Assembly: GCA_903915735.1 (NCBI GenBank)
Contig: CAIWUA010000053.1
Coordinates: forward strand, 1-38,624
Length of the DNA: 38,624 bases
Source of the DNA: Candidatus Adlerbacteria bacterium
GTDB lineage: Bacteria; Patescibacteriota; Minisyncoccia; Phycocordibacterales; SBAW01
Reading direction: 5' to 3'
Numbering within the stretch: the stretch's first letter is position 1; the number at the start of each line of letters is the position of its first letter. The position numbers and the translations under genes are program-made. Positions 1 through 26,317 of this stretch are shown piece after piece. The notes beneath the pieces were generated by a model, which made no database searches, was not told where the DNA came from, and worked only from the letters and a program-made list of their open reading frames with translations.

Positions 1-33
1 CCAAAACTAGGACATCCGATGTCCTAGTTTTGG
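1..33. terminator. Perfect inverted-repeat hairpin (A4-stem-T4), probably a bidirectional intrinsic terminator for an off-window gene
   Basis: Positions 1-16 (ccaaaactaggacatc) are the exact reverse complement of 18-33 (gatgtcctagttttgg). A- and T-tracts flank the GC core. The window edge may truncate it. Confidence 0.45.
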
Positions 34-66
34 ACTGGGTGTGAAGAACTAAAGAAAAAGCGGGGG

Positions 67-72
67 TACAAT
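67..72 (+). promoter_or_regulatory. Candidate -10 box TACAAT, 6 nt upstream of the GTG start at 79
   Basis: tacaat at 67-72, then aagggt, then gtg. No TG extension, so it is weaker than the other boxes in this window. Confidence 0.25.
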
Positions 73-78
73 AAGGGT

Positions 79-732
79 GTGAACTTCATACACGGCATTT
101 TGGTCGGTATTGGGCTCTTTTTTGGCGCCCTCTGGTCCGGCACGCTCGGGCTTTTTCATGTGTCTGCTCCTACTTCGCAGTCTCAAAGTAGCTATACTAA
201 CGCTAGCACAACCATACAAACTGACGACAAAGATTTTACTTATACCAAAGATTCATATCATGTATATATGAATGGAAATATTCTCGCTGTAGATACGGGT
301 GGTCCAGCCTACGGACAGGAACCCGATGCCAGAACCTTTGTGTATGCTGGAGGCAAGGATGGCAGCTATTATTTTAAAGACAAAAATTATGCGTATTTCA
401 CCAACTGGCAGGAGTTTGCTGGTATGCCAAATGCAGACCCAGTCACATTTTCGACCAATTCTGATATTCTACCTTTCGCTAAAGACCAAACGCATGTTTT
501 TCTTGGAAGGGAGGTTGTCACGAATGCTGACCCGTCCACATTTGTTGTCGTCGATTCTCAATATACACATGATGCAAAAAACGTTTACTGGTTTGGATAC
601 AATGGGGGCCCTTTGATTTCAAAATTAATTAATGGAGCCGATGTTGCGACTTTTTCGGTTGTTTCCGGTCAGTCGTCTTACGACGCTCAAGACAAAAATC
701 ATAAATACCTGCAGGGGCAAATTGTGCAGTAG
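79..732 (+). CDS. Membrane-anchored DKNYY-repeat family protein
   Basis: 217-aa ORF with a GTG start. It has an N-terminal hydrophobic helix (GILVGIGLFFGALWSGTLGLF) and repeated KDKNYAYF / DAKNVYWF / DKNHKYLQG motifs separated by ADP(V/S)TF. The gene is visibly more AT-rich than its neighbours. Confidence 0.6.
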   Translation: MNFIHGILVGIGLFFGALWSGTLGLFHVSAPTSQSQSSYTNASTTIQTDDKDFTYTKDSYHVYMNGNILAVDTGGPAYGQEPDARTFVYAGGKDGSYYFKDKNYAYFTNWQEFAGMPNADPVTFSTNSDILPFAKDQTHVFLGREVVTNADPSTFVVVDSQYTHDAKNVYWFGYNGGPLISKLINGADVATFSVVSGQSSYDAQDKNHKYLQGQIVQ

Positions 733-746
733 GTCTCTTTACAAAA

Positions 747-755
747 TGGTATAAT
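747..755 (+). promoter_or_regulatory. Extended -10 promoter TGGTATAAT, 8 nt upstream of the ATG at 764 (leaderless or near-leaderless)
   Basis: tgg at 747-749 and tataat at 750-755, an 8-nt spacer (tacggtcg), then the ATG. No Shine-Dalgarno sequence fits in the gap. Confidence 0.45.
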
Positions 756-763
756 TACGGTCG

Positions 764-2494
764 ATGGCGGAGGATCCTAATCAAATAACTTTCTTTGCCC
801 AGACCAACTCCCGCGGGAGCTCGATGCCTTTTGGTATTAAGCGCAAGGACCGCGCGCGGCACATGTATGTCATCGGCAAGACTGGCATGGGCAAGAGTAC
901 CTTGCTCGAGAACATGGCTATACAGGACATCCGCAACGGCGAGGGGATAGCCTTTATCGACCCGCACGGCTCGACCGCCGACCGGATCATGGAGTACGTG
1001 CCGGCGCACCGCGTCAAAGACGTGGTGTACTTTGCGCCGTTCGACATGGACCATCCGGTAGCGTTTAACGTGATGGAGGACGTCGGCTATGACAAGCGGC
1101 ACCTGGTGGTGTCGGGGCTCTTGTCGGCGTTTCGCAAAATTTGGGTCGACGCATGGAGCGCGCGCATGGAGTACATTTTGTCGAACACGCTTTTAGCACT
1201 GCTCGAGTATCCGGGCGCGACGCTGCTGGACGTCAATCGCATGCTCATCAACAAAGCCTTTCGCAAAAAGGTGGTCGACAACGTCAAAGACCCGTTGGTC
1301 AAGAGCTTTTGGGTCGACGAGTTTGCCAACTACACCGACCGCTATACTCAAGACGCGACGCCCGCTATCCAAAACAAAGTAGGGCAGTTTACCTCTAACC
1401 CACTGATCCGCAACATCGTCGGGCAGCCCAAATCATCTTTTGACATCCGCAAGCTGATGGATGAGAAAAAGATTTTGATCATGAACCTCAGTAAGGGCCG
1501 CGTGGGCGAGGTCAACGCGACGCTGCTCGGCTCGATGCTGGTCACTAAAATATATTTGGCCGCGATGTCGCGCGCCGATGTGCCTTTGGAAGTGATGAAC
1601 AAGCTGCCCAACTTTTATTTTTACGTCGATGAGTTTCAAAACTTTGCCAACGAGAGCTTCTCTGACATCCTCTCCGAGGCGCGCAAATACAAACTCAACC
1701 TGCTTATTGCGCACCAATACGTCGAGCAGATGGAGGAGGAGGTGCGCGACGCGGTGTTTGGCAACGTGGGCACGACGGTCGCGTTTCGGGTCGGGCCGTT
1801 TGATGCCGAAGTGCTCGAAACTATTTTTAACCCGCAGTTTACCGCGACCGACTTGGTCAACCTTGGGTTTGCGCAGGTGTACCTGACGCTCATGATAGAC
1901 GGCGTCGGATCGCCGCCCTTTAGTGCGACCACACTGCCGCCGTTTGACCCGCCGCCCGAGCGGTTTGTCCCGCAGGTGCTCGAGGCGTCGCGCGCCGCCT
2001 ATGGCAAGCCACGCGCGCAGGTAGAGACGGCGATAGACGAGTGGAATAAGCTCGAGACGTTTGTGCCCGAGACAAAGCCTAAAAAAGATTATAGGCCGGC
2101 ACCTAAAGCTGCTTCTGCACCTGTGTCTGCGCCCGCTCATCCCGTCCACCATCCAACCCCCGAGGTTAAAAAAGAGGTAGCGGTTTTACACAAAGCCGCG
2201 GCAGCCCCGGCAGCGCCTGTGACTCGGCAACCTGCGCCGGCAACATACTCGCAGCCGGTTAAACCCCCACTCGGCGGGGCTAAAAGCTTGCGCGAGGCCT
2301 TGCAGATGGCCACCGGTACCAAAACGCCGCCCCATGCCAAAGACTTAAAAGAGACGCTCGGTCGCCTCGCCCCCGAGGCAGCTAAGCCCAAGCCGGAGCA
2401 TGCGCCGGCACTCAAACATCCTCAACCGCCAGAGCTCAGCCAAGAAAAGCTGCGCGAGATGCTGGCAGTCGAGCCGCTTGATGATGCTACGTAA
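764..2494 (+). CDS. Soluble VirD4/TraG/TraD-like type IV coupling-protein family ATPase with a disordered Pro/Ala/Lys-rich C-terminal tail
   Basis: 576-aa ORF. Walker A GKTGMGKST, a Walker-B-like strand FYFYVDEFQNF, and ARKYKLNLLIAHQY typical of T4CP/FtsK-HerA ATPases. No N-terminal TM helix. About 140 aa of low-complexity tail. Confidence 0.7.
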   Translation: MAEDPNQITFFAQTNSRGSSMPFGIKRKDRARHMYVIGKTGMGKSTLLENMAIQDIRNGEGIAFIDPHGSTADRIMEYVPAHRVKDVVYFAPFDMDHPVAFNVMEDVGYDKRHLVVSGLLSAFRKIWVDAWSARMEYILSNTLLALLEYPGATLLDVNRMLINKAFRKKVVDNVKDPLVKSFWVDEFANYTDRYTQDATPAIQNKVGQFTSNPLIRNIVGQPKSSFDIRKLMDEKKILIMNLSKGRVGEVNATLLGSMLVTKIYLAAMSRADVPLEVMNKLPNFYFYVDEFQNFANESFSDILSEARKYKLNLLIAHQYVEQMEEEVRDAVFGNVGTTVAFRVGPFDAEVLETIFNPQFTATDLVNLGFAQVYLTLMIDGVGSPPFSATTLPPFDPPPERFVPQVLEASRAAYGKPRAQVETAIDEWNKLETFVPETKPKKDYRPAPKAASAPVSAPAHPVHHPTPEVKKEVAVLHKAAAAPAAPVTRQPAPATYSQPVKPPLGGAKSLREALQMATGTKTPPHAKDLKETLGRLAPEAAKPKPEHAPALKHPQPPELSQEKLREMLAVEPLDDAT

Positions 2495-3632
2495 TTACTT
2501 TTTACTTTTCATTTTCTTGCTCGTAGTACCGGCGCCGCTGCTTGCCGCGGATTTGGTTAATATCAACACGGCCGATAAGGCTACCCTGATGACCCTGACC
2601 GGTCTTGGCGGCACGGGGGTAAAGGCTCAGGCGGTTATCGACTACCGGACCCAAAACGGGCCGTTTCAAAAAATAGAGGACATTATGAATGTGAGTGGCA
2701 TAGGCCAGGCGACCTTTAACGGTTTTAAAGATCGCATTACGGTCGGTGACGCAGCGCAAACTCAAACACAAACCCAGCCACAGACGCAGGCGACCAGCAC
2801 ACCCACGCAGACACAGGTTGCTGTGTCGCTCGGCGGCGTGGGGCCGCCGCCGATAACCGCGCAAATAACCGCCGACACGGTGACAGCTGCGGGGGCGGGG
2901 ACCTACTTTGCCGGCGAAGTGTTTGGCACCAAAGGCGAACCGCTGTCGGGCGCGCGCTATATTTGGAACTTTGGCGACGGCGCGACCGCCGAGGGGGTGC
3001 ATCAAATGCACACCTATGTGTACCCCGGCAGTTATGATGTTGAGTTGTCGGTTGGCTACAACTACTCGAGCGCTACGGCACGGGTATTGGTTGTCGCTAA
3101 GGCGCCACAGGTCGCACTCGTGTTGCAGGCCGATAACTCACTCTTGGTCGTCAACAACTCTACACAAGATTTGTCGCTGGGAGAGTGGTCGCTCGAAAGT
3201 GGTCATAACACTTTTGTTATTCCGCCGGACACGCTCGTACATGCGCAAGGTGGTGTGCGCTTTGCGCCTTTAATTATGGGGTTTGCCGCGCAGCGCGGTG
3301 CACTCCTACGCTTCCCTAACAACACCACGGCAGCGACCTCGACACTCGCTAACGACTCGCCGCTCCATGGAGAGCAGGTTGCTTTATCTACGCCACCAAC
3401 AGACAAGACTCCCGTGCCGATGGCCAAAGCTCCGGTAGCCAAGATAACCGCCGCTAAAACCATCGATCAAGCTGCGGCCGTTGTTGCAACCCCCGTATCG
3501 CGCGAGGTGGGGTGGAGCTATGTTGTCGGCCTCGCCGCTATCATTGCGCTCGGGGTCGTCGGGACCTACTATGCATATACCAAACCAAAGACGGTAACCG
3601 AGGCCGCCGTCGACGAGTTTGATATTGAATGA
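2481..3632 (+). CDS. comEA: ComEA-type helix-hairpin-helix DNA-binding protein fused to a TQ linker, a PKD domain, a lamin-tail-like domain and a C-terminal TM anchor
   Basis: The ATG at 2481 gives the signal peptide MMLRNYFLLFIFLLVVPAPLLA. HhH region: NINTADKATLMTLTGLGGTGVKAQAVIDYRTQNGPFQKIEDIMNVSGIG. PKD-like: YIWNFGDGATAEGVHQMHTYVYPGSYDVELSV. LTD-like: VVNNSTQDLSLGEWSL. C-terminal TM: VVGLAAIIALGVVGTYYAY. The gene overlaps the upstream gene by 14 nt. Confidence 0.75.
   Translation: MMLRNYFLLFIFLLVVPAPLLAADLVNINTADKATLMTLTGLGGTGVKAQAVIDYRTQNGPFQKIEDIMNVSGIGQATFNGFKDRITVGDAAQTQTQTQPQTQATSTPTQTQVAVSLGGVGPPPITAQITADTVTAAGAGTYFAGEVFGTKGEPLSGARYIWNFGDGATAEGVHQMHTYVYPGSYDVELSVGYNYSSATARVLVVAKAPQVALVLQADNSLLVVNNSTQDLSLGEWSLESGHNTFVIPPDTLVHAQGGVRFAPLIMGFAAQRGALLRFPNNTTAATSTLANDSPLHGEQVALSTPPTDKTPVPMAKAPVAKITAAKTIDQAAAVVATPVSREVGWSYVVGLAAIIALGVVGTYYAYTKPKTVTEAAVDEFDIE
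2755..2817 (+). repeat. CA-rich imperfect repeat coding a Thr/Gln linker (QTQTQTQPQTQATSTPTQTQ)
   Basis: caaactcaaacacaaacccagccacagacgcag...cagacacag, read directly. It lies in frame inside the ComEA-like CDS. Confidence 0.7.
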
Positions 3633-4735
3633 CCAAAAGAATACTTATTTTTAGCCTGGCATACTACCCGCGGGTGGGCGGGGCCGAGGTGGCTATTAAA
3701 GAGATTACCGACCGCATTGCGCCGAGCGATATCGAATTTCATATGGTGACGCTGCGGTTTTCGCCAGCAGATGCGCCGGAGGAAAAAATCGGGAATGTAT
3801 TGGTACATCGGGTCGGGTGGGGAGGCTCGTATCTGGATAAAATATTATTTGTACCGCGCGCGGCGTTGGCTGCCCGCCGTCTGCATAAAAAAGAAACGTT
3901 CGACGGCGCGTGGGCCATGATGAGTTATATGCTCTTTCCGCTTGTGCTTGCCAATCTTAAAATACCCTACGCGCTTACCTTGCAAGAAGGGGATACCGAA
4001 GAGCATATGTTTGCACGGGTGCGGGTGCTGCCTTTTTTGTTTTTGTTGCGGCGGGGGTTTCGTAATGCGACTGCGGTTTCGGCACTCTCTATTTTTTTGG
4101 CCGAGTGGGCCAAGCGCATGGGATACCGCGGCAAGGTTGAGATAGTGCCCAACGGCGCTGATACCCAAAAATTTTCAGGACCAAAAATAGCACACGAGGG
4201 CGTGGTGCTTGTTACCTCATCGCGGCTCGTTTATAAAAACGCGGTAGACGACGTGTTGCGCGCGGTGGCGTTGGTCCCGGGGGCCCGGTTTATAATTGCG
4301 GGCGAAGGGCCCGAGGAGGCAAAACTCAAAGCACTTGCGCACGAACTTGGAGTTGAAAGTCGCGTCGAATGGCTTGGGTATGTCGACCATACGCGGTTGG
4401 CCACGCTACTACACAGCGCGGATATCTATGTCCGGCCAAGTCGGAGCGAAGGTTTTGGTGCCTCATTTGTCGAGGCAATGGCGGCGGAGATCCCTATCAT
4501 TACGACACAAGAAGGGGGGCTTAAAGACTACATTACGCCTGAGGTTGCCTGGCCGGTAGCCAAAGACAGCCCCGAGCAAATTGCCTTGCAGGTTAAGGCT
4601 ATTTTGAGTAACCCCGAGGCCACTAAAGTAGTTGTAGAGAGGGCACGGCAGTTGGCCGTACAAAAATACGATTGGAGCTTGATTGCGCGCGACATGCGGG
4701 ATAAAGTGTTTGCCCGCCTTTTTCATGGAGTATAA
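3629..4735 (+). CDS. GT-B fold glycosyltransferase (GT4-like)
   Basis: 368 aa. E-x7-E region RPSRSEGFGASFVEAMAAEIPIITT. ATGA overlap with the ComEA-like stop. Confidence 0.8.
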   Translation: MTKRILIFSLAYYPRVGGAEVAIKEITDRIAPSDIEFHMVTLRFSPADAPEEKIGNVLVHRVGWGGSYLDKILFVPRAALAARRLHKKETFDGAWAMMSYMLFPLVLANLKIPYALTLQEGDTEEHMFARVRVLPFLFLLRRGFRNATAVSALSIFLAEWAKRMGYRGKVEIVPNGADTQKFSGPKIAHEGVVLVTSSRLVYKNAVDDVLRAVALVPGARFIIAGEGPEEAKLKALAHELGVESRVEWLGYVDHTRLATLLHSADIYVRPSRSEGFGASFVEAMAAEIPIITTQEGGLKDYITPEVAWPVAKDSPEQIALQVKAILSNPEATKVVVERARQLAVQKYDWSLIARDMRDKVFARLFHGV

Positions 4736-5726
4736 AAAAAAGATTTTAATAGCGACCGGGCTGTATCCGCCAGAGAGCGGCGGGCCGGCCACCTACACCA
4801 AACTTTTAGAGGAGCGTCTGCCGATGCTTGGGTTTGATGTTATGGTGCTGCCGTTTAGTGCGGTGCGGCACTTGCCTAAAGGAGTGCGGCACGTAGTCTA
4901 TTTTTTTCTTTGTGTTGGGTATGCGATGATGTGCGACTTGGTGTATGCGCAAGACACCGTGAGCGTCGGCCTGCCGGCTGTCTTGGCGGCAAAGGTCGCG
5001 GGGAAAAAGTTTGTAGTGCGTGTGCCCGGCGACTATGCCTGGGAGCAGGGGCGGCAGCGCTTTGGGGTGAGCGACGAGCTCGACGAGTTTCAAACTAAAA
5101 AATATGGTCTCAAGGTCGAGCGCTTGCGCCGCCTGCAGCGCTTTGTGGTGCGCAGCGCCAAAGCCGTCGTGGTACCGAGTAAGTATATGCAAAGAGTAGT
5201 GTCGGGGTGGGGAGTAAAACCAGTTCTTCATTACAACGGGATAGATGTCCCGATTGCTTTTGAAGAACCGCACCGCCCCTCTGGTTTTTTGATTGTATCT
5301 TTTGGTCGTGATGTGCCATGGAAAGGTTTCGATGCATTGCGTCGTATCGCACAAAAAGAACCGTCTTGGCACCTCAAAATTTTTAGCGAGCTTCCACGGG
5401 TGCAGGCTATGGGCTGGCTTAAGGCGGCGGATGTTTTTGTGATAAATTCTTGGTACGAAGGCCTCTCGCATCAGCTGCTTGAGGCAATGGCGCTCGGCAC
5501 ACCAATTGTCGCAACCAACGTGGGCGGTAATCCAGAGTTGGTTGACGACGGGAGCGGTGTCCTTATTGCACCCGGAGATGATGCAGCACTTTATAACGCA
5601 CTAAAAAAGATAGCGGCAGATCCTGTGGGCGCACGTTCGCGCGCGCAAAACGCTCGACATGTAGTAGAGGCTTTTTCAATCACCCATACGCTCCCCAAAC
5701 TTGCCGAATTTTTGAAAACACTATGA
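4725..5726 (+). CDS. GT-B fold glycosyltransferase (GT4-like)
   Basis: ATG at 4725 (MEYKKKILIATGLYPPESGG) is preferred over the in-frame start at 4683. C-terminal motif NSWYEGLSHQLLEAMALGTPIVATNVGGNPE. Confidence 0.75.
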   Translation: MEYKKKILIATGLYPPESGGPATYTKLLEERLPMLGFDVMVLPFSAVRHLPKGVRHVVYFFLCVGYAMMCDLVYAQDTVSVGLPAVLAAKVAGKKFVVRVPGDYAWEQGRQRFGVSDELDEFQTKKYGLKVERLRRLQRFVVRSAKAVVVPSKYMQRVVSGWGVKPVLHYNGIDVPIAFEEPHRPSGFLIVSFGRDVPWKGFDALRRIAQKEPSWHLKIFSELPRVQAMGWLKAADVFVINSWYEGLSHQLLEAMALGTPIVATNVGGNPELVDDGSGVLIAPGDDAALYNALKKIAADPVGARSRAQNARHVVEAFSITHTLPKLAEFLKTL

Positions 5727-6595
5727 AAGTCCTAATGATCACTGGCGACAAAAAGGTTGCGACAAGCGCGCGTTTTGCCCTGCAGGCCGCGCAGGTAGAT
5801 AAGCTTGCCGTGGTGTATTGGGGGCGGGGAGCACTGTGGCCAGCCATGCCACAGGAGCATTTTGATGTGGTGACGGTCCAAGACCCCTTTTGGCGCGGGC
5901 TGTTTGCGTGGCGGGTGGCGCGTCGCATGGGCGCAAAATTTAATGTGCAGGTGCACACCAGTGTTTTGACTATGCTTGGCAAATTTATTTTGCGCCGGGC
6001 AGACTCAATACGTGTCGTGTCCGAAAAGATAAAAAAGCAGGTTGAGGCTATTGGTGTGCGCACGCCAATAACCGTGTTGCCTATCTATGTAGATATTTCT
6101 AAATTTCAGAATATAGTCCGGCAACCACACAGTAAAAAAATAATCCTGTGGATAGGCCGGTTTGAGTGGGAGAAGGACCCCATTTTTGCAATACATATTA
6201 TAAAAAATGTAATTGATGCAGGAGTCGATGCCCGGTTGGTCATGCTCGGGTCGGGTACTCTGGAGCCCACCATACAAAAACTCGCGCAGGATTTGCCTGT
6301 AGAGTTTGCGGGTTGGCAAGACCCGGTGCCCTACTTGGAGCAGGCCGACATGGTGCTCTCAACCTCTCTGCATGAAGGGTACGGTGCCAGCATGGTCGAA
6401 GCGCTCGCAGCTGGGGTGCCGGTGGTCGCGCCCGATGTTGGCATTGCCCGCGAGGCCGGGGCCATAGTCGCGCCGCGCTTACAACTTGCGCAGGCTACAA
6501 TAGATACGCTACGCTCAGGGGCTGTGGGTACTTTGCGGCTTGCGGTGCCCTCGAGACAAGAGTGGGCAGAAAAATGGAAACAATCACTTCAATAA
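5723..6595 (+). CDS. Short GT-B glycosyltransferase (GT4-like)
   Basis: 290 aa. STSLHEGYGASMVEALAAGVPVVAPDVG. ATGA overlap with the upstream stop. Confidence 0.7.
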   Translation: MKVLMITGDKKVATSARFALQAAQVDKLAVVYWGRGALWPAMPQEHFDVVTVQDPFWRGLFAWRVARRMGAKFNVQVHTSVLTMLGKFILRRADSIRVVSEKIKKQVEAIGVRTPITVLPIYVDISKFQNIVRQPHSKKIILWIGRFEWEKDPIFAIHIIKNVIDAGVDARLVMLGSGTLEPTIQKLAQDLPVEFAGWQDPVPYLEQADMVLSTSLHEGYGASMVEALAAGVPVVAPDVGIAREAGAIVAPRLQLAQATIDTLRSGAVGTLRLAVPSRQEWAEKWKQSLQ

Positions 6596-16420: not shown

Positions 16421-18223
16421 ATGGACATCCCTCTCTTCTCATCGGCATCAAGAGCGAGCATGCGCCGGACGCATGAGCTCTTTCGGCGCGCCTTTGGGCC
16501 CTATGTCCCGCATACCATTGCTATTGTGCTTTTGGCGGCGTTAGGGAGCGCCATGGAAGGGCTTGGCATCAGCGCTATTGTGCCGGCCTTTTCGTTTGCC
16601 GGAGGACAGGCCGGCACCGCCGCCGATGCCATCTCCCAAATCATACAACACCTCTTCTCGTTTATAGGTTTGCCGTACTCGTTTAGGTTTTTGCTGTTTT
16701 TTATGGGCGTGCTCTTTGTGCTAAGGACGGTGTTGGTGCTGGTCATACAGTATGTCACGGCGCGCATCGTCTATGGCTACGAGCGCGACCTGCGGACGAC
16801 ACTGTTTGGCAACATGGTCCGCGCGGGGTGGCCATTCCTCTCGCAGCAAAAGGTCGGGCAGCTCGATCAGCTGCTTATTACCAACACGACCAACACGTCG
16901 CAGTTTTTTAACTTTATCTCTACGCTGGCACTCATCGGCACCAAAGCCATCGCCTATATCATCATCGCGATAAATCTCGCGCCTACCGTAGCGGTTGCCA
17001 GTTTGCTGGCCGGCCTCGTGGCCTTTGTGGGGCTGCGGCCGCTTTTTAGCGCCGCCAAGGCCGCCTCGGTGCGGGTCGAGCGGCTTAACCGCGGTATGGC
17101 CCACTTTGTCAGCCAGCACGTCGGCGGCATGAAGACCATTAAAGCCGCGGCGGTCGAGGAGCCGGTCGAGCGTACTATTGGCGAGTTTTTTGAGAGTATC
17201 CGCTCGCTGTTTGTGCGCATGATGGTGTTGCGCGGCACCACCGAAACGTTGGTGCGCCTGTTTGGGCTTGGGTTCGTTGGTATTGTGTTTGTGGTTATGT
17301 ACCAGACACCCGGGTTTAACATCGCGGCCTTTGCGGTGATCGTGTATGTAATCAATCAAATCTTTTCGCAGGTGCAGGCGATGCAGGTACAGATGCACGC
17401 GCTCAGCACGATGGTGCCGTACATTGGCAGCGTGTTTGCCCAAGTAGATGACGCGCGCGCCAACCGCGAGGAGACCGGCGGCGGCCCCATGCCAACGCAG
17501 TGGGAGACGCTTGCGTTTGACCACGTATCGTTTACCTATCCGGGGCGCGAGCGCACGCTCGAGGACGCCTCGTTTGAGATTAAGCGCGGCGGTATTGTGG
17601 GCATTATCGGCCCGTCCGGAGCGGGCAAAACCACCCTGGTCGACCTGCTCATGCGCTTGTTTGACCCGCACAAGGGCGAGATTGTGCTCGATGGAGTTGC
17701 GGCGCGCACCGTGTCACGCACCGCGTGGCGCACGCAGGTTGGCTATGTGGCCCAAGACTCGTTTTTGCTTAACGACACCATTGCTCGCAATATTGCCTTT
17801 TATCATGCGTGCTCGCATGAGGAAATAGTTGCCGCCGCCAAAGCCGCCAGCGTGCACGAGTTTATCGAGTCGTTGCCGCAGGGGTACGAGACCGTCATAG
17901 GCGACCGCGGAGTGTTGGTGTCCGGCGGACAGCGCCAACGCATCGCGCTGGCGCGCGCACTGGTACGCATGCCCGAGCTGCTTATCCTCGACGAGGCCAC
18001 GAGCTCGCTCGATAGCGAGACCGAGGCCGCCGTGCACGAGGCGATAGATACCTTGCGCGGCAAGACCACTATCATCATCATTGCACACCGTTTGTCGACC
18101 GTTGCGTCGGCCGACGAGTTGCTGGTGGTCGAAAAGGGTCGCATCACCGAGCGTGGCACGCCCGAGGAGCTGTTAAAAAACAAAGACTCCTATTTTGCTA
18201 AAGCGTATGGCCCCCGTGCATAA
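16421..18223 (+). CDS. Fused TMD-NBD ABC exporter (MsbA/PglK/Wzk type)
   Basis: 600 aa with an N-terminal multi-TM domain. Walker A GPSGAGKTT, signature LSGGQRQRIALARAL, Walker B LLILDEATSSLD. An alternative start at M14 (16460) is possible. Confidence 0.85.
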   Translation: MDIPLFSSASRASMRRTHELFRRAFGPYVPHTIAIVLLAALGSAMEGLGISAIVPAFSFAGGQAGTAADAISQIIQHLFSFIGLPYSFRFLLFFMGVLFVLRTVLVLVIQYVTARIVYGYERDLRTTLFGNMVRAGWPFLSQQKVGQLDQLLITNTTNTSQFFNFISTLALIGTKAIAYIIIAINLAPTVAVASLLAGLVAFVGLRPLFSAAKAASVRVERLNRGMAHFVSQHVGGMKTIKAAAVEEPVERTIGEFFESIRSLFVRMMVLRGTTETLVRLFGLGFVGIVFVVMYQTPGFNIAAFAVIVYVINQIFSQVQAMQVQMHALSTMVPYIGSVFAQVDDARANREETGGGPMPTQWETLAFDHVSFTYPGRERTLEDASFEIKRGGIVGIIGPSGAGKTTLVDLLMRLFDPHKGEIVLDGVAARTVSRTAWRTQVGYVAQDSFLLNDTIARNIAFYHACSHEEIVAAAKAASVHEFIESLPQGYETVIGDRGVLVSGGQRQRIALARALVRMPELLILDEATSSLDSETEAAVHEAIDTLRGKTTIIIIAHRLSTVASADELLVVEKGRITERGTPEELLKNKDSYFAKAYGPRA

Positions 18224-19652
18224 ACGCAAAAAATTATTTTTGGTTGGCTGGGCAAGCCTCTTGTCGGAGCAAATTTATTCGGTACACAAACTCGCTAAGG
18301 AGCACGACATTCTTTATTGGGTGCGGATCAAGGACGTGGTCCCATTTGAGGAAAAGGATTTTCCTAACACCCTATTTCATGACTACCGCGACGCGCTTGC
18401 CGCACGGCCCGCGCCCGGTATCGATGCGTCCGGTTTTGGCATACCCTCAGCGAAAGAGTTCGGCGCCTTGGCGGATGTCGAAGCAGAGTTTATGGTCATG
18501 ACCGAAAAGTGGTATGAGAGCTGGTCTATCAATCGCCGGAAGGAACTTTTTTATGAGATGGTGCGCTACTGGGGCGGGGTGCTGGATATGTTGCGGCCCG
18601 ACGCTATTGTCATGACCGACATACCGCACGAAATGTACAGTTTTGTGCTCTATCATTTGGCAAAACGTCGCGGCATCGGGACTATCATGTTTGAAAACGT
18701 GCTGAGGTACGACCGGCTGCTCATGTACCGTGATTATAATGACGGCAATCCGGCGCTCTCGATGGTAGCAAAAATCGGCTACCCCCACCGTGAGCTCGCC
18801 AGCTTGCCTTTGGACATACAAGAGCAGTATCTCGAACAGACCGGACAAAAAGAGCCCACGCCAAAATATATGGGTACTTTCAAACAGGAGCATACCGGGT
18901 GGGGAAAGCTGCGTCGTACGACAAAAGCCCTGGTGCCGTTTATCAAAGACGGGAGCATCATCGAGCGGGGAGTCACGAGGCTTTTTAAGCTGTTAAAGCC
19001 TTCGATACGGAGCGAGTTTGCGCGCTACGTCGGCGTGGCGCAGTATGGTGTGCCCTTCGTGTACGTGCCACTCCATTATCAGCCCGAACGCACCTCAAGC
19101 CCGCAAGGGGGAGTCTTTTCGGACCAGATGCTTTTGGTTAAGACGCTTGCTGCCTCGTTGCCCGCAGGATGGAGGCTGTTGGTAAAAGAGCATCCCAATC
19201 AGTGGCTGCCGCACGGCGACGATTATACGCCGTATCGCTACCCCGGGTTTTATGAAGAGCTTGCCAAGATACCCGGCGTGATCCTTGTCCCGCTTTCGAC
19301 CAGCACGTTCGAGCTTATCGAACATGCGCAGGCGGTGTCGACCATCAGCGGCATCCCGGCATGGGAGGGACTGTTGCGCGGCAAGCCGGCGATCCTGTTT
19401 GGTTGTTCGTGGTTTATGCACGCGCCCGGTGTGTACCGGGTGGACAGCGTAGCGTCCTGTCGCCAGGCGCTAGCAGAGATAGCCGCCGCGGGCGGCCCAT
19501 CGGCCCAGTCGATGGTCGATTATCTTGGTGCGCTCGGGGACGCGAGCGTGCAAGGCTACCTCGACGTCTATGGTCGCGCGTGGGCGCCGTACTCGCCCGA
19601 GGAGTATGCGCGCAATCTGTCCGGCGCGATAAGCGAGGCGCTTGCGACATGA
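18207..19652 (+). CDS. Capsule polysaccharide biosynthesis protein, KpsC/KpsS-like (Capsule_synth family), paralog of 14857-16350
   Basis: ATG at 18207; the track start at 18195 is a TTG. Motifs YVPLHYQPE, LLVKEHPNQ and TISGIPAWEGLLRGKPAILFG. Overlaps the ABC gene's 3' end. Confidence 0.6.
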   Translation: MAPVHKRKKLFLVGWASLLSEQIYSVHKLAKEHDILYWVRIKDVVPFEEKDFPNTLFHDYRDALAARPAPGIDASGFGIPSAKEFGALADVEAEFMVMTEKWYESWSINRRKELFYEMVRYWGGVLDMLRPDAIVMTDIPHEMYSFVLYHLAKRRGIGTIMFENVLRYDRLLMYRDYNDGNPALSMVAKIGYPHRELASLPLDIQEQYLEQTGQKEPTPKYMGTFKQEHTGWGKLRRTTKALVPFIKDGSIIERGVTRLFKLLKPSIRSEFARYVGVAQYGVPFVYVPLHYQPERTSSPQGGVFSDQMLLVKTLAASLPAGWRLLVKEHPNQWLPHGDDYTPYRYPGFYEELAKIPGVILVPLSTSTFELIEHAQAVSTISGIPAWEGLLRGKPAILFGCSWFMHAPGVYRVDSVASCRQALAEIAAAGGPSAQSMVDYLGALGDASVQGYLDVYGRAWAPYSPEEYARNLSGAISEALAT

Positions 19653-20459: not shown

Positions 20460-21083
20460 ATGGCTCGGCAGCCTCGCATCGATTTAGGTGATTATGTATA
20501 TCACGTCATCAACCGTTCCAACGGCCGTGCACAGATATTTTTCAACGATGAGGATTATCAGGACTTCGAGCATCTCCTTAACGAAATGGCGGAAACTTAC
20601 GAGATGCGAATATTGGGTTACGTCCTTATGCCCAACCATTGGCATCTCCTCTTGTATCCTCGACAAGACAAAGATCTCGCCAAAGCTCTACAATGGCTTG
20701 GCACTACCCACGCCCGCCGGCACCATTCTCGCAAAGGAACCGTCGGTGGCGGGCATTTATATCAAGGGCGCTATAAATCCTTTCTGATTCAAGAAGATCT
20801 ACACCTACTTACTGTACTGAAATATATTGAACGTAATCCTGTACGGGCCAAACTCTGTACGAGGACCGAGTTGTGGTCATGGGGGAGCGCCTATCGCCGA
20901 AAGAACAAACTCAAGAAGCCCAAACTTTCCGCACTGCCAATTGATTTACCGCGTGACTACACAGAATGGGTCAACATACCGGAGTCAGCCGAGCAGCTAA
21001 AATCCATCCGACAGTCGGTCAATAGGGGTGTACCATATGGGGAGGAGAGGTGGATAAAAAGATGGAATAATATTAAACAATAG
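20460..21083 (+). CDS. IS200-like Y1 (HUH) transposase / REP-associated tyrosine transposase (RAYT)
   Basis: 207 aa. HUH motif in MPNHWHLLLYP and the catalytic-Tyr region LKYIERNPVRAKL. N-terminus MARQPRIDLGDYVYHVINRSNGRAQIF is typical of this family. Confidence 0.8.
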   Translation: MARQPRIDLGDYVYHVINRSNGRAQIFFNDEDYQDFEHLLNEMAETYEMRILGYVLMPNHWHLLLYPRQDKDLAKALQWLGTTHARRHHSRKGTVGGGHLYQGRYKSFLIQEDLHLLTVLKYIERNPVRAKLCTRTELWSWGSAYRRKNKLKKPKLSALPIDLPRDYTEWVNIPESAEQLKSIRQSVNRGVPYGEERWIKRWNNIKQ

Positions 21084-21763: not shown

Positions 21764-22759
21764 ATGTATACCCTCAAAAATAAGGTTATTTTGATCACCG
21801 GCGGGACAGGCTCCTTTGGCAAAGCCTGTGTTAAAAAAATCCTCGATGAGCACGATCCTAAGGCTATCCGCATCTACAGCCGCGACGAGCTTAAGCAGTG
21901 GGAGATGCAGCGCGAGTTTAACTCGGATAAACTGCGCTTTTTGATAGGCGATGTGCGCGACGCCGAGCGTCTTACCCGCGCCTGCGAGGGGGTCGACGTT
22001 GTCATACACGCGGCTGCGCTTAAGCAGGTGCCCGCATGCGAGTACAACCCGATGGAGGCGGTTAAGACCAACATCAACGGCGCGATGAACGTTATTAACG
22101 CGGCGCTCGACAACAATGTCGACAAAGTGATTGCCCTGTCGACCGACAAGGCCGCCGGACCGGTCAATATTTATGGCGCGACCAAGCTTGCCTCAGATAG
22201 GCTCTTTATCCAATCCAACTCGTACCGCGGCCCTATGCGCGACACGCAGTTTTCGGTGGTGCGCTACGGCAACGTGATGGGCAGCCGCGGCAGCGTTATA
22301 CCGCTCTTTCGCAAACAGCGCGAAACCGGCACGGTCACCATTACCGACAAGCGCATGACGCGCTTTTGGATCACGCTCCCGCAAGCGGTCGACTTTGTGC
22401 TGTCGAGCTTGGCGGTTATGCAGGGCGGCGAGCTGTTTGTCCCCAAGATCCCCAGCATGACCATGCTCGAGCTGGCCAAGACCATTGCGCCCAAAGCAAA
22501 AATAAAAATGATCGGCATCCGCCCCGGCGAAAAGCTGCACGAGTGGCTTATCTCGCCGGGCGAGGCGCGCACCGGTCTTGAGATGAAGGATCGCTACATC
22601 ATTCTTTCAGAGTCGCAGGACGGGTGGAGCCACGATATGAGCCGCTACCCGGCCGCACGCAAGGTTAAAGAGGGGTTTGAGTACAACAGCCGCGACAACA
22701 AGAGCTACCTGAGCACCAAGGCTATGTTGGCGCTTCTCAACGAGCTCGATTTGGCCTAA
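21764..22759 (+). CDS. pseB: UDP-N-acetylglucosamine 4,6-dehydratase (inverting), PseB/FlaA1 type
   Basis: 331 aa. ILITGGTGSFGK, IYSRDELKQWEMQ, HAAALKQVPACEYNPMEAVKTNI, LSTDKA and YGATKL correspond closely to PseB/FlaA1 proteins. Confidence 0.85.
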   Translation: MYTLKNKVILITGGTGSFGKACVKKILDEHDPKAIRIYSRDELKQWEMQREFNSDKLRFLIGDVRDAERLTRACEGVDVVIHAAALKQVPACEYNPMEAVKTNINGAMNVINAALDNNVDKVIALSTDKAAGPVNIYGATKLASDRLFIQSNSYRGPMRDTQFSVVRYGNVMGSRGSVIPLFRKQRETGTVTITDKRMTRFWITLPQAVDFVLSSLAVMQGGELFVPKIPSMTMLELAKTIAPKAKIKMIGIRPGEKLHEWLISPGEARTGLEMKDRYIILSESQDGWSHDMSRYPAARKVKEGFEYNSRDNKSYLSTKAMLALLNELDLA

Positions 22760-22770
22760 ACTGAGCGTAT

Positions 22771-23832
22771 ATGACCTTCGCCAAAAGCTTTAAGATAGGG
22801 GACCGAAAAGTGGGCGAGGGCGCACCGACGTATTTTATCGCCGAGATAGGCGCTAACTTTGACGGCAACCTAGAGCTTGCCAAAAAGTACGCGCTCGAGG
22901 CTAAAAAAATCGGCGCCGATTGTGCCAAGATACAAACCTTTACCGCCAAAAAAATAGTCTCGCGCGAGGCCTTTGCAAAGATGCAGTTAAAGGGCGTGCA
23001 CGGCAGCTGGAAGCGCCCCGTAGACGAGGTGTTTAAAGAGGTCGAGTTTCCTCACGCATGGCACAAAGAGTTTTTTGAGTACTGTTGGAGCATCGGCATT
23101 ACGCCGTCGACCGCCGCTTATGACAAAGAGGCCGTCGACTTGGTCGACAAGCTTGGTATCGAATTTTATAAAATAGGCTCGGGTGATATCACGTGGCTCG
23201 AGATGGTCGAGTATGTGGCGCGCAAGGGCAAGCCGGTAGTGCTGGCGACCGGCGCGGCGACGCTTGCCGAGGTAGACGAGGCCGTGCGCACGATCGAAAA
23301 GACCGGCAACAAAAATCTTGCACTCCTGCAGTGCATCACCAACTATCCGTCAAAGTTTGAGAGTGCCAACATTAACGTGCTCAACACCTACCGCGACGCG
23401 TTTGGCGCGGTGGTTGGCTACTCGGACCACACGCCGGGCGACACGGTGGTGCTTGGCTCGGTGGCGATAGGCGCCAAAGTGATAGAGAAGCATATTACCT
23501 TTGACCGCGCTAACAAAGGCCCCGACCACCCGCACTCGATGACATTTGATGAGTTTGGCGCCATGATCCGCCGCACTCGCGAGCTCGAAAAGGCGATGGG
23601 CACCGGTGTTAAAGAGGTGGTGGCCGAGGAGGCCGAGACGGTCATCGTCCAGCGCCGCGGGCTCACGGCCGCTGCACGTATTACTAAGGGCCAAAAATTT
23701 ACCGCTAAAAATGTGGCGGTCCTGCGCCCCGCGCTTGGCATCCCGCCTAAATTTAAAAGCGCCATTGTCGGCAAGAGCGCCAAAAAGACTCTTGCCCAGG
23801 GCGCCCCTATCCACTGGGAGGATATTGCTTAA
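22771..23832 (+). CDS. Nonulosonic acid synthase, NeuB/PseI/LegI/SpsE family, with a C-terminal SAF domain
   Basis: 353 aa. YFIAEIGANFDGNLELAKK, KIGSGDITW, GYSDHT, IEKHITFD. C-terminal SAF-like region RRGLTAAARITKGQKFTAKNVAVLRP. Confidence 0.85.
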   Translation: MTFAKSFKIGDRKVGEGAPTYFIAEIGANFDGNLELAKKYALEAKKIGADCAKIQTFTAKKIVSREAFAKMQLKGVHGSWKRPVDEVFKEVEFPHAWHKEFFEYCWSIGITPSTAAYDKEAVDLVDKLGIEFYKIGSGDITWLEMVEYVARKGKPVVLATGAATLAEVDEAVRTIEKTGNKNLALLQCITNYPSKFESANINVLNTYRDAFGAVVGYSDHTPGDTVVLGSVAIGAKVIEKHITFDRANKGPDHPHSMTFDEFGAMIRRTRELEKAMGTGVKEVVAEEAETVIVQRRGLTAAARITKGQKFTAKNVAVLRPALGIPPKFKSAIVGKSAKKTLAQGAPIHWEDIA

Positions 23833-23834
23833 CC

Positions 23835-24422
23835 ATGACACCCCGAGAGCAATTTATTGCTGTCATCAGCAACGACACGCTTAAAAAAGCGGATGCAATA
23901 GTGATACTCGAGGGTGACGGTCTTGCCCGCATCCCCGAAGCGGCGCGTTTGTACAAAGAGGGTTGGGCGCCGCTGGTTGTCATTTCAGGCGGCATTAAAA
24001 ATCCTCCGCACAGTATTACTGCGTCGGAGATGCTGCCCGCGGTTGTGGCAGCCGGCGTCCCCGCGAGCGCGGTAGTGCTTGAAGAAAAGTCTCAACACAC
24101 TCGCGACCAGGCGGTAGAACTTGCAGCGCTGTGCCAAGCACGCGGGTGGAGCCGGCTTATTATTGTCGCATCGCACTATCATCAGTACCGCGCATACCTA
24201 ACGTTGCTTAAAGGTCTTATCGAGGCGGGGCTCGAGCGCACCGTGCAGCTTATTAATGCGCCGGCGCGCAGCCTGCCGTGGTTTGCACAAGATGCGCAAG
24301 GCAAGCGCATAGACTTGCTTGCGGGGGAGTTTGAACGTCTCGAGTTGTACGCGCCCAAGGGGCACTTGGCTACATTTGAGGATGCGATACTTTACCAAGA
24401 GTGGAAGGAGCAGCAGATATAA
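23835..24422 (+). CDS. DUF218 / YdcF-ElyC family protein
   Basis: 195 aa. ADAIVILEGDG...LVVISGG...SQHTRDQA...IIVASHYHQYRA is typical of DUF218. Confidence 0.65.
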   Translation: MTPREQFIAVISNDTLKKADAIVILEGDGLARIPEAARLYKEGWAPLVVISGGIKNPPHSITASEMLPAVVAAGVPASAVVLEEKSQHTRDQAVELAALCQARGWSRLIIVASHYHQYRAYLTLLKGLIEAGLERTVQLINAPARSLPWFAQDAQGKRIDLLAGEFERLELYAPKGHLATFEDAILYQEWKEQQI

Positions 24423-24428
24423 AAAGAT

Positions 24429-24941
24429 ATGAAAAAACTCCCTTGGCAGTATGAGTTTGAGGACCGCGGCGATGTGGTTGCGGTGCGCGCGCAATCGGGC
24501 GTAACACTCAACCAGATGCGCGAGTACTTTGGCATGGACCCGGCCGCCGAGCCCTGCTTTTATAACCAAGACTGGTATCTTAAAGAGGATTTTGCAGCTA
24601 CCACCGCCACCGACGGAGAGTGGCACGTGCTGCACAAGAATGTCCGCGAGGAGTGGCGCGCAAAGATGCCTCAGGATATCGAGGCTGCGCTTGCCGGCAA
24701 CGAGCGACTCCCCACCGCGGTAACGGCCGCCTTTGTCTTTTTTGTCTATTGGTACGAGACGGGCGGGAAGCGGCTATGGGAGCACGACTTTGTGTGGTGC
24801 AGCGACACGGACCACAACGGCGACCGCATCTATGTTGGGCGCTACGAAGACCCGACCGGCGTCAACAAAAACGGCTTTAACATCCACCGGCACCTCGCCT
24901 TGCGCCCGGCCTACAGCGCCGCCCCGGAGGTGCTTAGCTAA
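24429..24941 (+). CDS. Hypothetical protein (170 aa), no recognisable family
   Basis: Long ORF with codon usage like its neighbours and a 6-nt gap from the upstream gene. No motif recognised. Confidence 0.5.
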   Translation: MKKLPWQYEFEDRGDVVAVRAQSGVTLNQMREYFGMDPAAEPCFYNQDWYLKEDFAATTATDGEWHVLHKNVREEWRAKMPQDIEAALAGNERLPTAVTAAFVFFVYWYETGGKRLWEHDFVWCSDTDHNGDRIYVGRYEDPTGVNKNGFNIHRHLALRPAYSAAPEVLS

Positions 24942-24943
24942 GC
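24932..24943. repeat. 12-bp perfect palindrome GCTTAGCTAAGC holding the stop codons of two convergent genes
   Basis: Read directly. Both genes end CTT AGC TAA (-LS*) on their own strand. An adjacent TTTTTTAAAAAA palindrome lies at 24944-24955. Confidence 0.9.
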
Positions 24944-25245
24944 TTTTTTAAAAAATACTGCGCGCGTAGTTGCAAGTGTTTGTTTTTATCGTTTGCGGCC
25001 CAAGCCTCGAGCTGCTCTGGTGGGATGCGGTGCGCGAGGCCCATCAGCAAAAGTACGTCGGGTGCGAGCGAGTCTATAAGATTGTATTTGACCAGCAACT
25101 TTTCAAGAGTGCCGCGCAGGGTGTTGATGCGGCCGTTGTCGTCGCCTGCCTCGCCAAACACCTGCATGGTCGTGCCAAACGACACGTGGTTGTAGAGCAC
25201 GCCGACCAGCGCCTTTTCCTCCCCCTCGTTAAGCGTTTGTTCCAT
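24934..25245 (-). CDS. Hypothetical protein (103 aa), no recognisable family
   Basis: ORF with its own extended -10 box upstream and a terminator separating it from the upstream minus-strand gene. Confidence 0.5.
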   Translation of the reverse strand: MEQTLNEGEEKALVGVLYNHVSFGTTMQVFGEAGDDNGRINTLRGTLEKLLVKYNLIDSLAPDVLLLMGLAHRIPPEQLEAWAANDKNKHLQLRAQYFLKKLS

Positions 25246-25254
25246 ATTGTGGCT

Positions 25255-25263
25255 AGTATATCA
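25255..25263 (-). promoter_or_regulatory. Extended -10 TGATATACT (minus strand), 9 nt upstream of the ATG at 25245
   Basis: The reverse complement of 25255-25263 (agtatatca) is tgatatact. It is the same 9-mer as the box at 26358-26366. Confidence 0.4.
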
Positions 25264-25271
25264 AAAAGAAA

Positions 25272-25299
25272 AAGACCGGAGCGCGAACGCTCCGGTCTT
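25272..25299. terminator. Bidirectional intrinsic terminator (12-bp perfect stem, 4-nt loop cgaa)
   Basis: aagaccggagcg-cgaa-cgctccggtctt, flanked by aaaaagaaaaa on one side and tatatttta on the other. Confidence 0.75.
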
Positions 25300-25304
25300 A
25301 TATT

Positions 25305-26267
25305 TTATCCGTGGAAGCCAAATGCAAGCAGGGACACACCGATGATGCCCAGGGCCGCAAAGCCCCACTGGTGTTTGTCGAAGCCCCGACCTTCTTTAAA
25401 GATCCAAAGCCCGATGGTGGTCGGTATTAACGCCTCGGACACTAGCAGGATAGGCCCCACCACCGTTTGTGGTGCGAGTACTTTTGCCCAGTACTCGATA
25501 GCAAGACAAGTGCAGAGGCCCACTGCAAAGACAAAGATAAGGCCAATATCTTTGGCTCGGTACGGCTTGCCGGTCTCGACCTGTACGTTGTGGAACACCG
25601 TACGAAAGTAGGCACTCCGGAGCGCCAACAGCGGGAGTAGGAATTTGCGTCCCAAGAAAACCGTCCCTAACGCTAGGGACGAGCCGAGGTACCACGCAAA
25701 CACAAACTGCCCGGCGTTCATATGCTCGATGGCGAAGTATCGCTGCGAGAAGTCCGCCACACCCCACAGCACACTGTAGAGCATGACACACAGGTAGAAG
25801 TGAGCCGACTCTCCGCCATTCTTTTTGTCGTGCCACCAAAAGAGAACTCCGGTGGCAAAACACAGTGCCATGCCCATGGCGCTGACCGCGTTTAAGTAGC
25901 GGCCGTCGCCAATAAGCGCTATCGCCAGCAAGACCGCGATAATGTCATCACCAAACGACAAAAGCGAGGTCTTGCTCATTGATATGCGACTGGCGCGCCA
26001 TTGAGTGATGTTGGCAAAGCCGTTGAGCACACCAACGCCGACCACCAGCAACGTGGTAGTGGTAAACGAAAAGCCTCCGGTCGCTGCGGCAAACAACGTG
26101 CCGGCTACAGCGCAAAGACCCATGTTTACCGTGAGCCGCTTTATTTGGTCGGGCTGGTCGGCAAGATATTTGCCGAGCCACCGAACCGCGACATAGGCGG
26201 CAATGATATAGACCAGGACAGGTATCCACCAAGGGACCCCGAGCAGGACGGTTGTGAGTGTGTGCAT
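25305..26267 (-). CDS. Polytopic (about 10 TM) membrane protein, DMT/EamA-like transporter superfamily
   Basis: ATG at 26267 is preceded by gaaggg (SD-like) 7 nt upstream. The track start at 26318 is a TTG inside the promoter region. Hydrophobic helices run throughout. The family call is tentative. Confidence 0.5.
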   Translation of the reverse strand: MHTLTTVLLGVPWWIPVLVYIIAAYVAVRWLGKYLADQPDQIKRLTVNMGLCAVAGTLFAAATGGFSFTTTTLLVVGVGVLNGFANITQWRASRISMSKTSLLSFGDDIIAVLLAIALIGDGRYLNAVSAMGMALCFATGVLFWWHDKKNGGESAHFYLCVMLYSVLWGVADFSQRYFAIEHMNAGQFVFAWYLGSSLALGTVFLGRKFLLPLLALRSAYFRTVFHNVQVETGKPYRAKDIGLIFVFAVGLCTCLAIEYWAKVLAPQTVVGPILLVSEALIPTTIGLWIFKEGRGFDKHQWGFAALGIIGVSLLAFGFHG

Positions 26268-26308
26268 TGGATACCCTTCAGATATTTGTAGAACGAGGCT
26301 GGTAATAT

Positions 26309-26317
26309 AATATAACA
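26309..26317 (-). promoter_or_regulatory. Extended -10 TGTTATATT (minus strand) with a leader of about 41 nt to the ATG at 26267
   Basis: The reverse complement of 26309-26317 is tgttatatt, in the AT-rich divergent intergenic region. Confidence 0.35.

Follow-up and report, generated by a model that had tools for sequence, protein, structure and literature searches.

The stretch of DNA considered here is a whole contig of 38.6 kb (CAIWUA010000053.1, hereafter the window) from a Paceibacteria (Parcubacteria) genome assigned to Candidatus Adlerbacteria, and the system in question is a pair of overlapping genes on its forward strand, referred to below as open reading frames (ORFs) A and B. ORF A (764..2494) encodes a P-loop ATPase of 576 aa that belongs to the VirD4/TrwB family of type IV coupling protein (T4CP)-like enzymes and carries no membrane anchor, and ORF B (2481..3632) encodes a modular, surface-anchored protein of 383 aa. 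On the same strand, a GT4 glycosyltransferase gene (3629..4735), the first of a long surface-glycan cluster, overlaps B by the tetranucleotide ATGA (3629-3632); downstream of A, its orthologue is found at about 64 of 80 related loci. As the initial annotation of this DNA had noted, A and B overlap by 14 nt (2481..2494), the start of B (ATGATG, 2481-2486) lying ahead of the TAA stop codon of A (2492-2494). That overlap had been read as translational coupling; since overlaps are frequent in this operon, as the one between B and the glycosyltransferase gene illustrates, it is by itself weak evidence. Our comparative analyses show that A-B is a conserved two-gene chromosomal unit of Paceibacteria which heads a cell-surface glycan operon.

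The assignment of ORF A to the coupling-protein family is supported by three Pfam profiles that score above cut-off, namely TrwB_AAD_bind (5.2e-8, 32.6 bits versus a gathering cut-off of 20.5), whose match runs continuously from aa 28 to 343, TraG-D_C (1.1e-6, 29.1 bits versus 22) and T4SS-DNA_transf (2.5e-4, 20.5 bits versus 20.1), and by TrwB itself, the top sequence match in the PDB (E 3e-4). Among the NCBIfam models no equivalog cut-off was reached by ORF A; TraD, the CD1115-type VirD4 and CedD gave partial matches far below threshold, that of CedD (9e-6) being weak and confined to the Walker A region. Walker A (GKTGMGKS, aa 38-45, 875..898) and Walker B (FYFYVDEF, aa 284-291, 1613..1636) lie within a core (aa 1-430, 764..2053) delimited by alignment, and in an alignment of 15 homologues most residues of both motifs, the catalytic ones included, are invariant. 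Across the family the first 400 residues are nearly invariant, which fits a core function and not a mobile or defence gene. A defence role as the mad8/HerA component of a MADS system was considered and rejected: the mad8 match (2.3e-13) is generic, at the level of the ATPase, no partner genes are present, and the gene is core and highly conserved. Between the two Walker motifs, helices are predicted at aa 117-235 in a model of low confidence, and this helical insert may correspond to the all-alpha domain.

No transmembrane (TM) segment was found in ORF A, the highest 19-residue Kyte-Doolittle window reaching 1.37. Because position 764 is the first start codon downstream of an in-frame stop, and because the aligned homologues all begin at the same M-x-E-D-P-N, a TM anchor contributed by an upstream start is excluded, and the anchorless character reported in the initial annotation stands. 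Behind the core comes a disordered C-terminal tail rich in Pro, Ala and Lys (aa 431-576, 2054..2491; P 18%, A 18%, K 11%; predicted local distance difference test, pLDDT, <50) in which the homologue alignment reveals three short conserved motifs: PPLGGAKSLREAL (2264..2302), HAKDLKETL (2333..2359) and, at the extreme C-terminus, the peptide LSQEKLREMLAVEP (2435..2476), with the family consensus (V/I)PE(D/E)xLRxxLxV(D/E). This last peptide is retained in loci that have no B gene.

The domain order proposed for ORF B in the initial annotation holds for the signal peptide, the ComEA-type domain, the TQ linker, the PKD domain and the C-terminal TM helix; the lamin-tail assignment stays below threshold. 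The N-terminal hydrophobic segment (aa 1-29) includes a putative signal peptide or anchor, MMLRNYFLLFIFLLVVPAPLLA (2481..2546), recognised by hydropathy and modelled as a helix, which would be cleaved in the former case and would place the rest of the protein outside the membrane. There follows a ComEA-type helix-hairpin-helix (HhH) DNA-binding domain (aa 24-88, 2550..2744) that matches HHH_3 (4.5e-16) and the ComEA HhH region model TIGR00426 (61.7 bits versus a cut-off of 53.1), keeps both GIG hairpins and superposes by Foldseek on Geobacillus ComEA (8dss_B) with a root-mean-square deviation of 1.5 Å over 68 residues and 41% identity. Against the full-length comE model (TIGR01259) ORF B scores 66.2 bits, below the cut-off of 152.35, as only the HhH part matches. 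A TQ-rich linker (aa 89-112, 2745..2816; pLDDT <50) leads to a PKD domain (aa about 109-207, 2805..3101) which is above cut-off for both Pfam PKD and PKD_4 (PKD 1e-9 to 1e-10, aa 124-204), shows the WxFGDG motif as IWNFGDG and resembles the PKD domain of ColG (Foldseek TM-score 0.79).

The second Ig-like beta domain of ORF B (aa 211-289, 3111..3347) is modelled as a confident beta fold and reaches the Pfam lamin-tail domain (LTD) at a sub-threshold E of 0.062; hhalign aligns it to LTD in the correct register with an E of 0.0064 but a probability of 6%, and no lamin match appears in the Foldseek top 50. About 15 homologues of B, among the matches listed, carry precomputed PF00932 hits, and an HMM (hidden Markov model) iterated from this domain also matches bona fide LTDs. 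We tentatively regard the domain as a divergent lamin-tail domain and, given the weak direct profile-profile evidence, label it LTD-like. A stalk rich in Ser, Thr, Ala and Pro (aa 290-340, 3348..3500), a TM helix predicted by hydropathy and in the model (aa about 341-365, 3501..3575) and a cytoplasmic tail of 18 aa (3576..3629), ending in the clade-specific ET..(D/E)EF(D/E)IE, complete the protein, whose AlphaFold model has an overall pLDDT of 81.5. The C-terminal TM helix was also considered as a sortase- or exosortase-type sorting signal, an idea we rejected since such signals usually end in a basic tail, whereas here the tails are acidic or lacking. With its Ser/Thr/Ala/Pro-rich linkers, and with nonulosonic-acid and Wzy_C+TPR genes in the window, B may possibly be O-glycosylated. 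Some homologues of B already bear the annotation ComEA-like.

The conservation of the pair was assessed in a sample of 80 loci, using our own ORF calls and HMMs iterated from the domains of the window, with neighbours recorded within ±8 kb. A gene of the B type stands directly downstream of A in 60 of the 76 loci with enough downstream sequence and, in the main cluster, B, when present, occupies rank +1 in 40 of 42 cases. The spacing is at most 25 nt in 93% of 58 A-B pairs versus 51% of 579 other same-strand pairs from the same loci. The arrangement is also recovered in the reciprocal direction, from distant B homologues (27-30% identity) that have A directly upstream (L085/L086 and L087), so that the adjacency seen in the window is indeed conserved in relatives. 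At another locus, an IS200-type transposase gene (L084:313-1026) lies directly upstream of a B homologue and A is missing. Upstream of A, across the 80 loci, we found RsmI (62), Mur ligases (51), DUF4015 (31) and an L,D-transpeptidase/PBP5 fusion (10), and downstream of it an NAD-dependent epimerase (43) and a run of GT4 genes (64), which gives A a housekeeping context and not that of a mobile element. Neither relaxase nor type IV secretion system (T4SS) genes occur among these conserved neighbours, and the 38.6-kb window contains no gene for VirB4, VirB6, a relaxase or another T4SS component, nor any comEC, comF or pil gene, in line with the earlier remark that VirB4, VirB6 and relaxase are missing from the window.

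The family of ORF A is large. A word-index search scored at least 8,000 matches, and the 120 listed are mostly full-length proteins with 67-77% identity and Patescibacteria names; in an exhaustive search 22,273 cluster representatives reached E<=1e-3 and 6,081 of them E<=1e-30, and a collection of species-representative genomes holds at least 594 stretches matching ORF A. Distant short-form members have the same anchorless core followed by a disordered tail of 260-500 aa and a conserved end peptide, which is (V/I)PEDxL(K/R)xxL in some and of another type, LxPGxxVxF, in others. At about 50% identity one finds longer proteins that open with one or two TM helices, behind which comes a domain of about 350 aa with a precomputed PF26449/DUF8128 match; such long forms occur in Saccharimonadia, Microgenomates, Berkelbacteria and Minisyncoccia, P0314, P0303 and P0336 being among the representatives. 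At one locus (L083:10001-12636) the long-form gene is split into parts of 520 and 348 aa, follows dprA-topA and a sigma-like gene, and adjoins a divergent dcw cluster (MurG, FtsW, MraY, PBP, RsmH, MraZ). Two associations with NUDIX proteins were also recorded: in P0291 a NUDIX-like N-terminal domain is fused to a short-form ATPase, and at another locus a NUDIX gene (L048:9699-10160) lies 25 nt downstream of A.

The DUF8128 N-domain has a homologue (hhalign probability 98.8%, E 1e-16) in the N-terminal part of a B. subtilis plasmid protein of 913 aa, labelled "DUF87", whose gene (L082:5948-10039, NZ_OX419581.1) directly precedes a replication-relaxation-family relaxase and TcpD/TcpE/VirB4-like genes, and this plasmid protein is the conjugative prototype of the Patescibacteria ATPase family. 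By this homology A descends, in truncated form, from the conjugative coupling proteins of monoderms; judged from sequence, A can be described as the short form of the pLS20/DUF8128-type proteins, in which the TM and DUF8128 N-domain have been lost. The core of A is homologous to those of the long forms (28% identity with the plasmid protein of B. subtilis, about 50% with the Patescibacteria proteins), but the entire DUF8128 N-domain and the TM are lacking, and unlike the plasmid long form A adjoins no relaxase, be it in the window or at any of the 80 loci. A separate DUF8128/TM gene was sought by tblastn and HMM and found neither in the window nor within ±8 kb of the 80 loci. Such a descent agrees with the monoderm type of T4SS attributed to Patescibacteria in a survey of 2025 in Microb Genom (PMC12102498).

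A conjugative ancestry raises the question of whether the locus is the remnant of an integrated conjugative element. The outgroup relatives of A are plasmid T4CPs, and the window harbours an IS200-type transposase gene (20460-21083). That gene lies 18 kb away, however, no relaxase, integrase or T4SS gene is present in the window, and members of the family, about 70% identical, occupy a fixed housekeeping context in hundreds of species, for which reasons we consider a remnant extremely improbable. An origin of A from a mobile element or phage was likewise rejected, in view of the same context and of plasmid and phage relatives that do not exceed 39% identity. The closest non-Patescibacteria relative in the plasmid collection is an anchorless orphan of 395 aa, 39% identical to A, encoded among transposase and recombinase genes on a Sulfitobacter mediterraneus plasmid (L081:7001-8188, NZ_CP081110.1).

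MurB and SecA are encoded in the remainder of the window along with surface-glycan biosynthesis, for which there are many GT4 transferase genes, a nonulosonic-acid set of the NeuB type and genes for Wzy_C+TPR proteins. With such surroundings one may ask whether A-B is an envelope module, in which B would be a glycosylated stalk or adhesin, itself a substrate of the GT4/Wzy_C (PglL-like)/nonulosonic-acid cluster, and A would act in envelope biogenesis or division, for example in an FtsK-like manner. A always stands at the head of the glycan cluster whether B is present or not, B overlaps the first glycosyltransferase gene and has Ser/Thr/Ala/Pro-rich linkers, Wzy_C+TPR proteins are encoded within the cluster, and Mur ligases, DUF4015 and the L,D-transpeptidase/PBP5 fusion lie upstream; furthermore, a long-form paralogue adjoins the dcw cluster, and Foldseek searches with B also match S-layer and glycan-binding Ig-like proteins. 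Yet T4CP-type ATPases are not known from any glycan or S-layer pathway, the HhH head of the ComEA type is a module specific to DNA binding, and an anchorless ATPase has no evident route to exported polymers. We therefore judge an envelope module to be unlikely.

Further features of the window may be mentioned here. Eight nucleotides ahead of the ATG of ORF A, an extended -10-like sequence, TGGTATAAT (747..755, forward strand), can tentatively be read, and it represents a possible near-leaderless promoter of the A-B-glycosyltransferase unit. Its position suggests that ORF A opens the transcription unit, and as no recognisable Shine-Dalgarno sequence is found before ORF A (747-766), the mRNA may be leaderless or near-leaderless. 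A sigma-70 scan gave no -35/-10 pair at 747..755, and a promoter and terminator scan of positions 1-6000 showed no excess over shuffled sequences. The upstream gene (79-732) encodes a DKNYY-family protein with a hydrophobic N-terminal segment; being upstream of A in only one of the 80 loci (L014), it falls outside the conserved unit. Scans of the window for tRNA genes and Rfam families returned zero matches. Within the glycan cluster, the stretch around the IS200/Y1-type transposase is GC-poor (0.47 versus about 0.56), genes for NeuB, an aminotransferase, a cytidylyltransferase, a PseB-like dehydratase and a 758-aa Wzy_C+TPR protein (O-antigen-ligase/PglL-like) occupy 21764-28331 and 29202-31478, and four ORFs of 485, 170, 213 and 195 aa (18195-19652, 24429-25611, 31531-32118) have no Pfam match at E<=1e-5.

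Returning to the pair, the ComEA domain is no fixed part of it, being found in only 17-18 of the 60 B partners. In most of the others its place is taken by a genuine lamin-tail domain (Pfam 1e-15 to 1e-20), and the order of the parts behind the head, PKD domain, LTD-like domain and TM anchor, is shared by both types; shorter variants consist of HhH and TM only, or of LTD and TM only. When the ATPase cores are placed on a neighbour-joining tree, loci with HhH-type and LTD-type heads interleave in two separate clades, which indicates that the head has been exchanged more than once. LTDs are known to co-occur with extracellular nucleases and metallo-beta-lactamase membrane hydrolases (PMC6085458). 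In a further Patescibacterium (L088:2580-5263; GCA_964409535.1, CAYPDQ010000016.1), a ComEC-like gene of 474 aa with DUF4131 and Competence domains overlaps by 4 nt the gene of a 420-aa protein with two ComEA HhH domains and an LTD, and there holds the slot that the T4CP-like ATPase has in the window. ComEA/LTD receptors are thus tightly coupled to either an uptake channel or ATPase A, and this is the strongest circumstantial argument for placing A in DNA traffic.

The membrane-proximal end of B varies more. The tail follows the clade: that of the window ends in ET..(D/E)EF(D/E)IE, other clades have short basic tails, and in the Kaiserbacteria clade (L017, L020, L024, L026, L031, L034, L036, L045, L056, L063, L064, L067, L069, L077 and L078) B ends inside the membrane helix (…GGAFIFL), with no cytoplasmic tail at all. 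Most proteins of this last clade terminate in (K/R)SPW(T/A)LGFLGV..LAG.AFIFL without a single cytoplasmic residue after the helix, an unusual and strongly conserved anchor. Since the tail is not conserved and one clade lacks it, docking of the tail on the ATPase, a contact that the initial annotation had suggested checking by co-folding, is unlikely to be universal; and since the C-terminal peptide of A is conserved in all clades and in loci without B, it probably docks to something other than the tail of B. A tethering role such as TraI has for TraJ is ruled out as a general property of B.

These observations bear directly on the possibility that A and B constitute a self-contained, ComEC-independent machine for DNA capture and translocation, with the tail of B tethering a hexamer of A to the membrane. 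TM-less T4CPs recruited by small membrane proteins do exist, as in the TraJ/TraI couple of pIP501 (PMC7434980), and the ET..EF(D/E)IE tail is conserved in the B proteins of the window's clade. However, one TM helix per B makes no plausible DNA pore, the tail is missing in a whole clade that keeps the A-B pair, and 21% of loci have no B. ComEC is, moreover, reported from most genomes of the phylum, ComEA from some only (PMC13293708), and as the ±8 kb around A hold no gene for a channel at any of the 80 loci, the A-B module is not self-contained; a large neighbour with 10 TM helices (L054), considered as a candidate channel, is a Wzy_C+TPR protein and not ComEC. A self-contained machine is thus very unlikely, and the earlier suggestion of a route distinct from ComEA-ComEC-ComFA finds no support.

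The explanation we favour, while giving it somewhat less than an even chance, is that B serves as a surface receptor for nucleic acids while A, docked by its end peptide on a channel whose genes lie elsewhere, is the motor or recruiter that acts for this pathway in the cytoplasm, a functional analogue of ComFA. A would be a cytoplasmic P-loop ATPase with intact motifs, descended from conjugative coupling proteins, whose acidic-hydrophobic end peptide, carried on a long disordered linker, could serve as a docking peptide for a partner. B would be exported, held at the surface by its C-terminal TM helix, and would present an exchangeable head, ComEA HhH or lamin-tail, on a PKD and LTD-like stalk, acting as an extracellular DNA receptor. 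A would then be the nucleic-acid motor or recruiter of that uptake or transfer pathway and would take the role that the peripheral ATPase ComFA has in Gram-positive competence, with the membrane channel provided by ComEC or by an oriC-proximal VirB6/VirB4 machinery encoded elsewhere. A contact between A and the tail of B may occur in the clade of the window and could not be a general rule.

The comparison with competence is instructive. Outside the membrane B has a bona fide HhH domain of the ComEA type, ComEC overlaps a related ComEA-LTD protein in L088, and A, like ComFA, is a cytoplasmic ATPase without TM. On the other hand, B is anchored by its C-terminus and bears PKD and LTD-like stalk domains, ComFA is a DEAD-box helicase and A an FtsK/HerA-superfamily member, and neither comEC nor comF occurs in the A-B neighbourhood. 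Among conjugative systems, a close parallel is TraJ/TraI of pIP501, where a VirD4/TrwB-family domain without N-terminal TM is encoded alongside a membrane protein and which belongs to a recognised subfamily of TM-less T4CPs (PMC7434980). The genes of TraJ and TraI, however, belong to the tra operon of a plasmid, together with those of a relaxase, VirB4 and VirB6, whereas A is chromosomal, orphan and housekeeping-like; TraI is a small polytopic tether and B a large extracytoplasmic receptor with one C-terminal TM helix; and A differs from TraJ by the conserved end peptide on its long disordered tail. The LTD nucleases ExeM of Shewanella and Xds of Vibrio share with B a signal peptide, an N-terminal LTD and a C-terminal hydrophobic anchor (PMC6085458), but B has no nuclease domain. 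Conjugation-derived ATPases also serve DNA import in the ComB system of H. pylori and the archaeal Ced system; ComB works without a T4CP and Ced with membrane proteins of its own, no such partners having been found near A.

Several points weigh against our explanation. B is missing from 16 of the 76 loci, A then lying directly before epimerase, GT4 or Wzy_C+TPR genes, and RsmI (62/80) and GT4 (64/80) are about as conserved beside A as B is, so that the adjacency could stem from conserved gene order in compact genomes. Neither ComEC, VirB6 nor any recurrent polytopic membrane protein lies within ±8 kb of A in the 80 loci. The tail of B is clade-specific and absent in the Kaiserbacteria clade, and the C-terminal peptide of A shows no co-variation with it. 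DNA binding by the LTD is not established (PMC6085458), and with an AlphaFold2 model of low confidence for ORF A (pLDDT 41.6, from a low-diversity alignment of 15 sequences), its hexamer, pore and all-alpha domain are only putative. Finally, in the one Patescibacterium studied genetically, a Saccharibacterium, neither t4cp nor comEC was essential for epibiotic growth, according to work cited in PMC12102498; the finding has only an indirect bearing on A, since a Saccharibacterium would have the long form.

Alternatively, the two proteins may have separate jobs, A serving a chromosomal, relaxase-less, oriC-proximal T4SS and B being the lineage's ComEA or adhesin, at work with ComEC and type IV pili, so that their adjacency would amount to conserved gene order. 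T4CP genes are commonly far from virB4, and in Paceibacteria virB4 lies near dnaA/dnaN (PMC12102498). The loci without B, the equally syntenic RsmI and GT4, the frequent gene overlaps throughout the operon and the want of a universal B tail for contact all accord with separate jobs. Less easily accommodated are a spacing of A and B far tighter than the background, the position of B at rank +1 almost without exception, the origin of both proteins in DNA-handling families, and the ComEA/LTD relative coupled likewise to ComEC in L088. We hold separate jobs to be possible and somewhat unlikely. The location of A beside B hints at a DNA-handling role at the cell surface and does not prove it. A more specific form of our preferred explanation, in which a coupling protein domesticated without its membrane part has become a nucleic-acid import motor served by a dedicated receptor, B, with a ComEA HhH or lamin-tail head, is put forward tentatively, as we find it rather doubtful.

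The initial annotation is partly supported, its observation being confirmed and its interpretation only in part. A soluble coupling protein is in itself no novelty: TM-less coupling proteins (PMC7434980) and orphan coupling proteins of Patescibacteria (PMC12102498) are already published, the latter source counting 5,713 VirD4-type T4CPs in 2,918 Patescibacteria genomes, 148 of them near virB4, and proposing exaptation. A is very probably among those counted, although the sections of that study cited here do not describe the short anchorless form, the tail peptide or the ComEA/LTD-PKD pairing. In the literature we found, the short-form architecture (core, disordered linker and end peptide) and its DUF8128-type derivation are undescribed, and the conserved pairing of A with a receptor of the [HhH or LTD]-PKD-LTD-like-TM type, together with the repeated head swap, appears to be new. 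If the pairing were only a matter of gene order, the short-form T4CPs would still stand out as a family of their own, beside a modular variant of ComEA which annotation pipelines at present label inconsistently.

Patescibacteria cannot make nucleotides and presumably live by scavenging nucleic acids. A, as a conserved and anchorless ATPase paired with a ComEA/LTD receptor, is a concrete and testable candidate for the motor of DNA import, so that direct experiments can now be designed on the role of the orphan Patescibacteria coupling proteins and on the power source of DNA import. In the same way, the exchange of HhH and LTD heads offers a testable hypothesis for the bacterial lamin-tail domain. 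If the domestication of a coupling protein as an import motor proved true, this domain would be an extracellular DNA-binding module equivalent to ComEA, and a function would be assigned to thousands of orphan T4CP genes of Patescibacteria.

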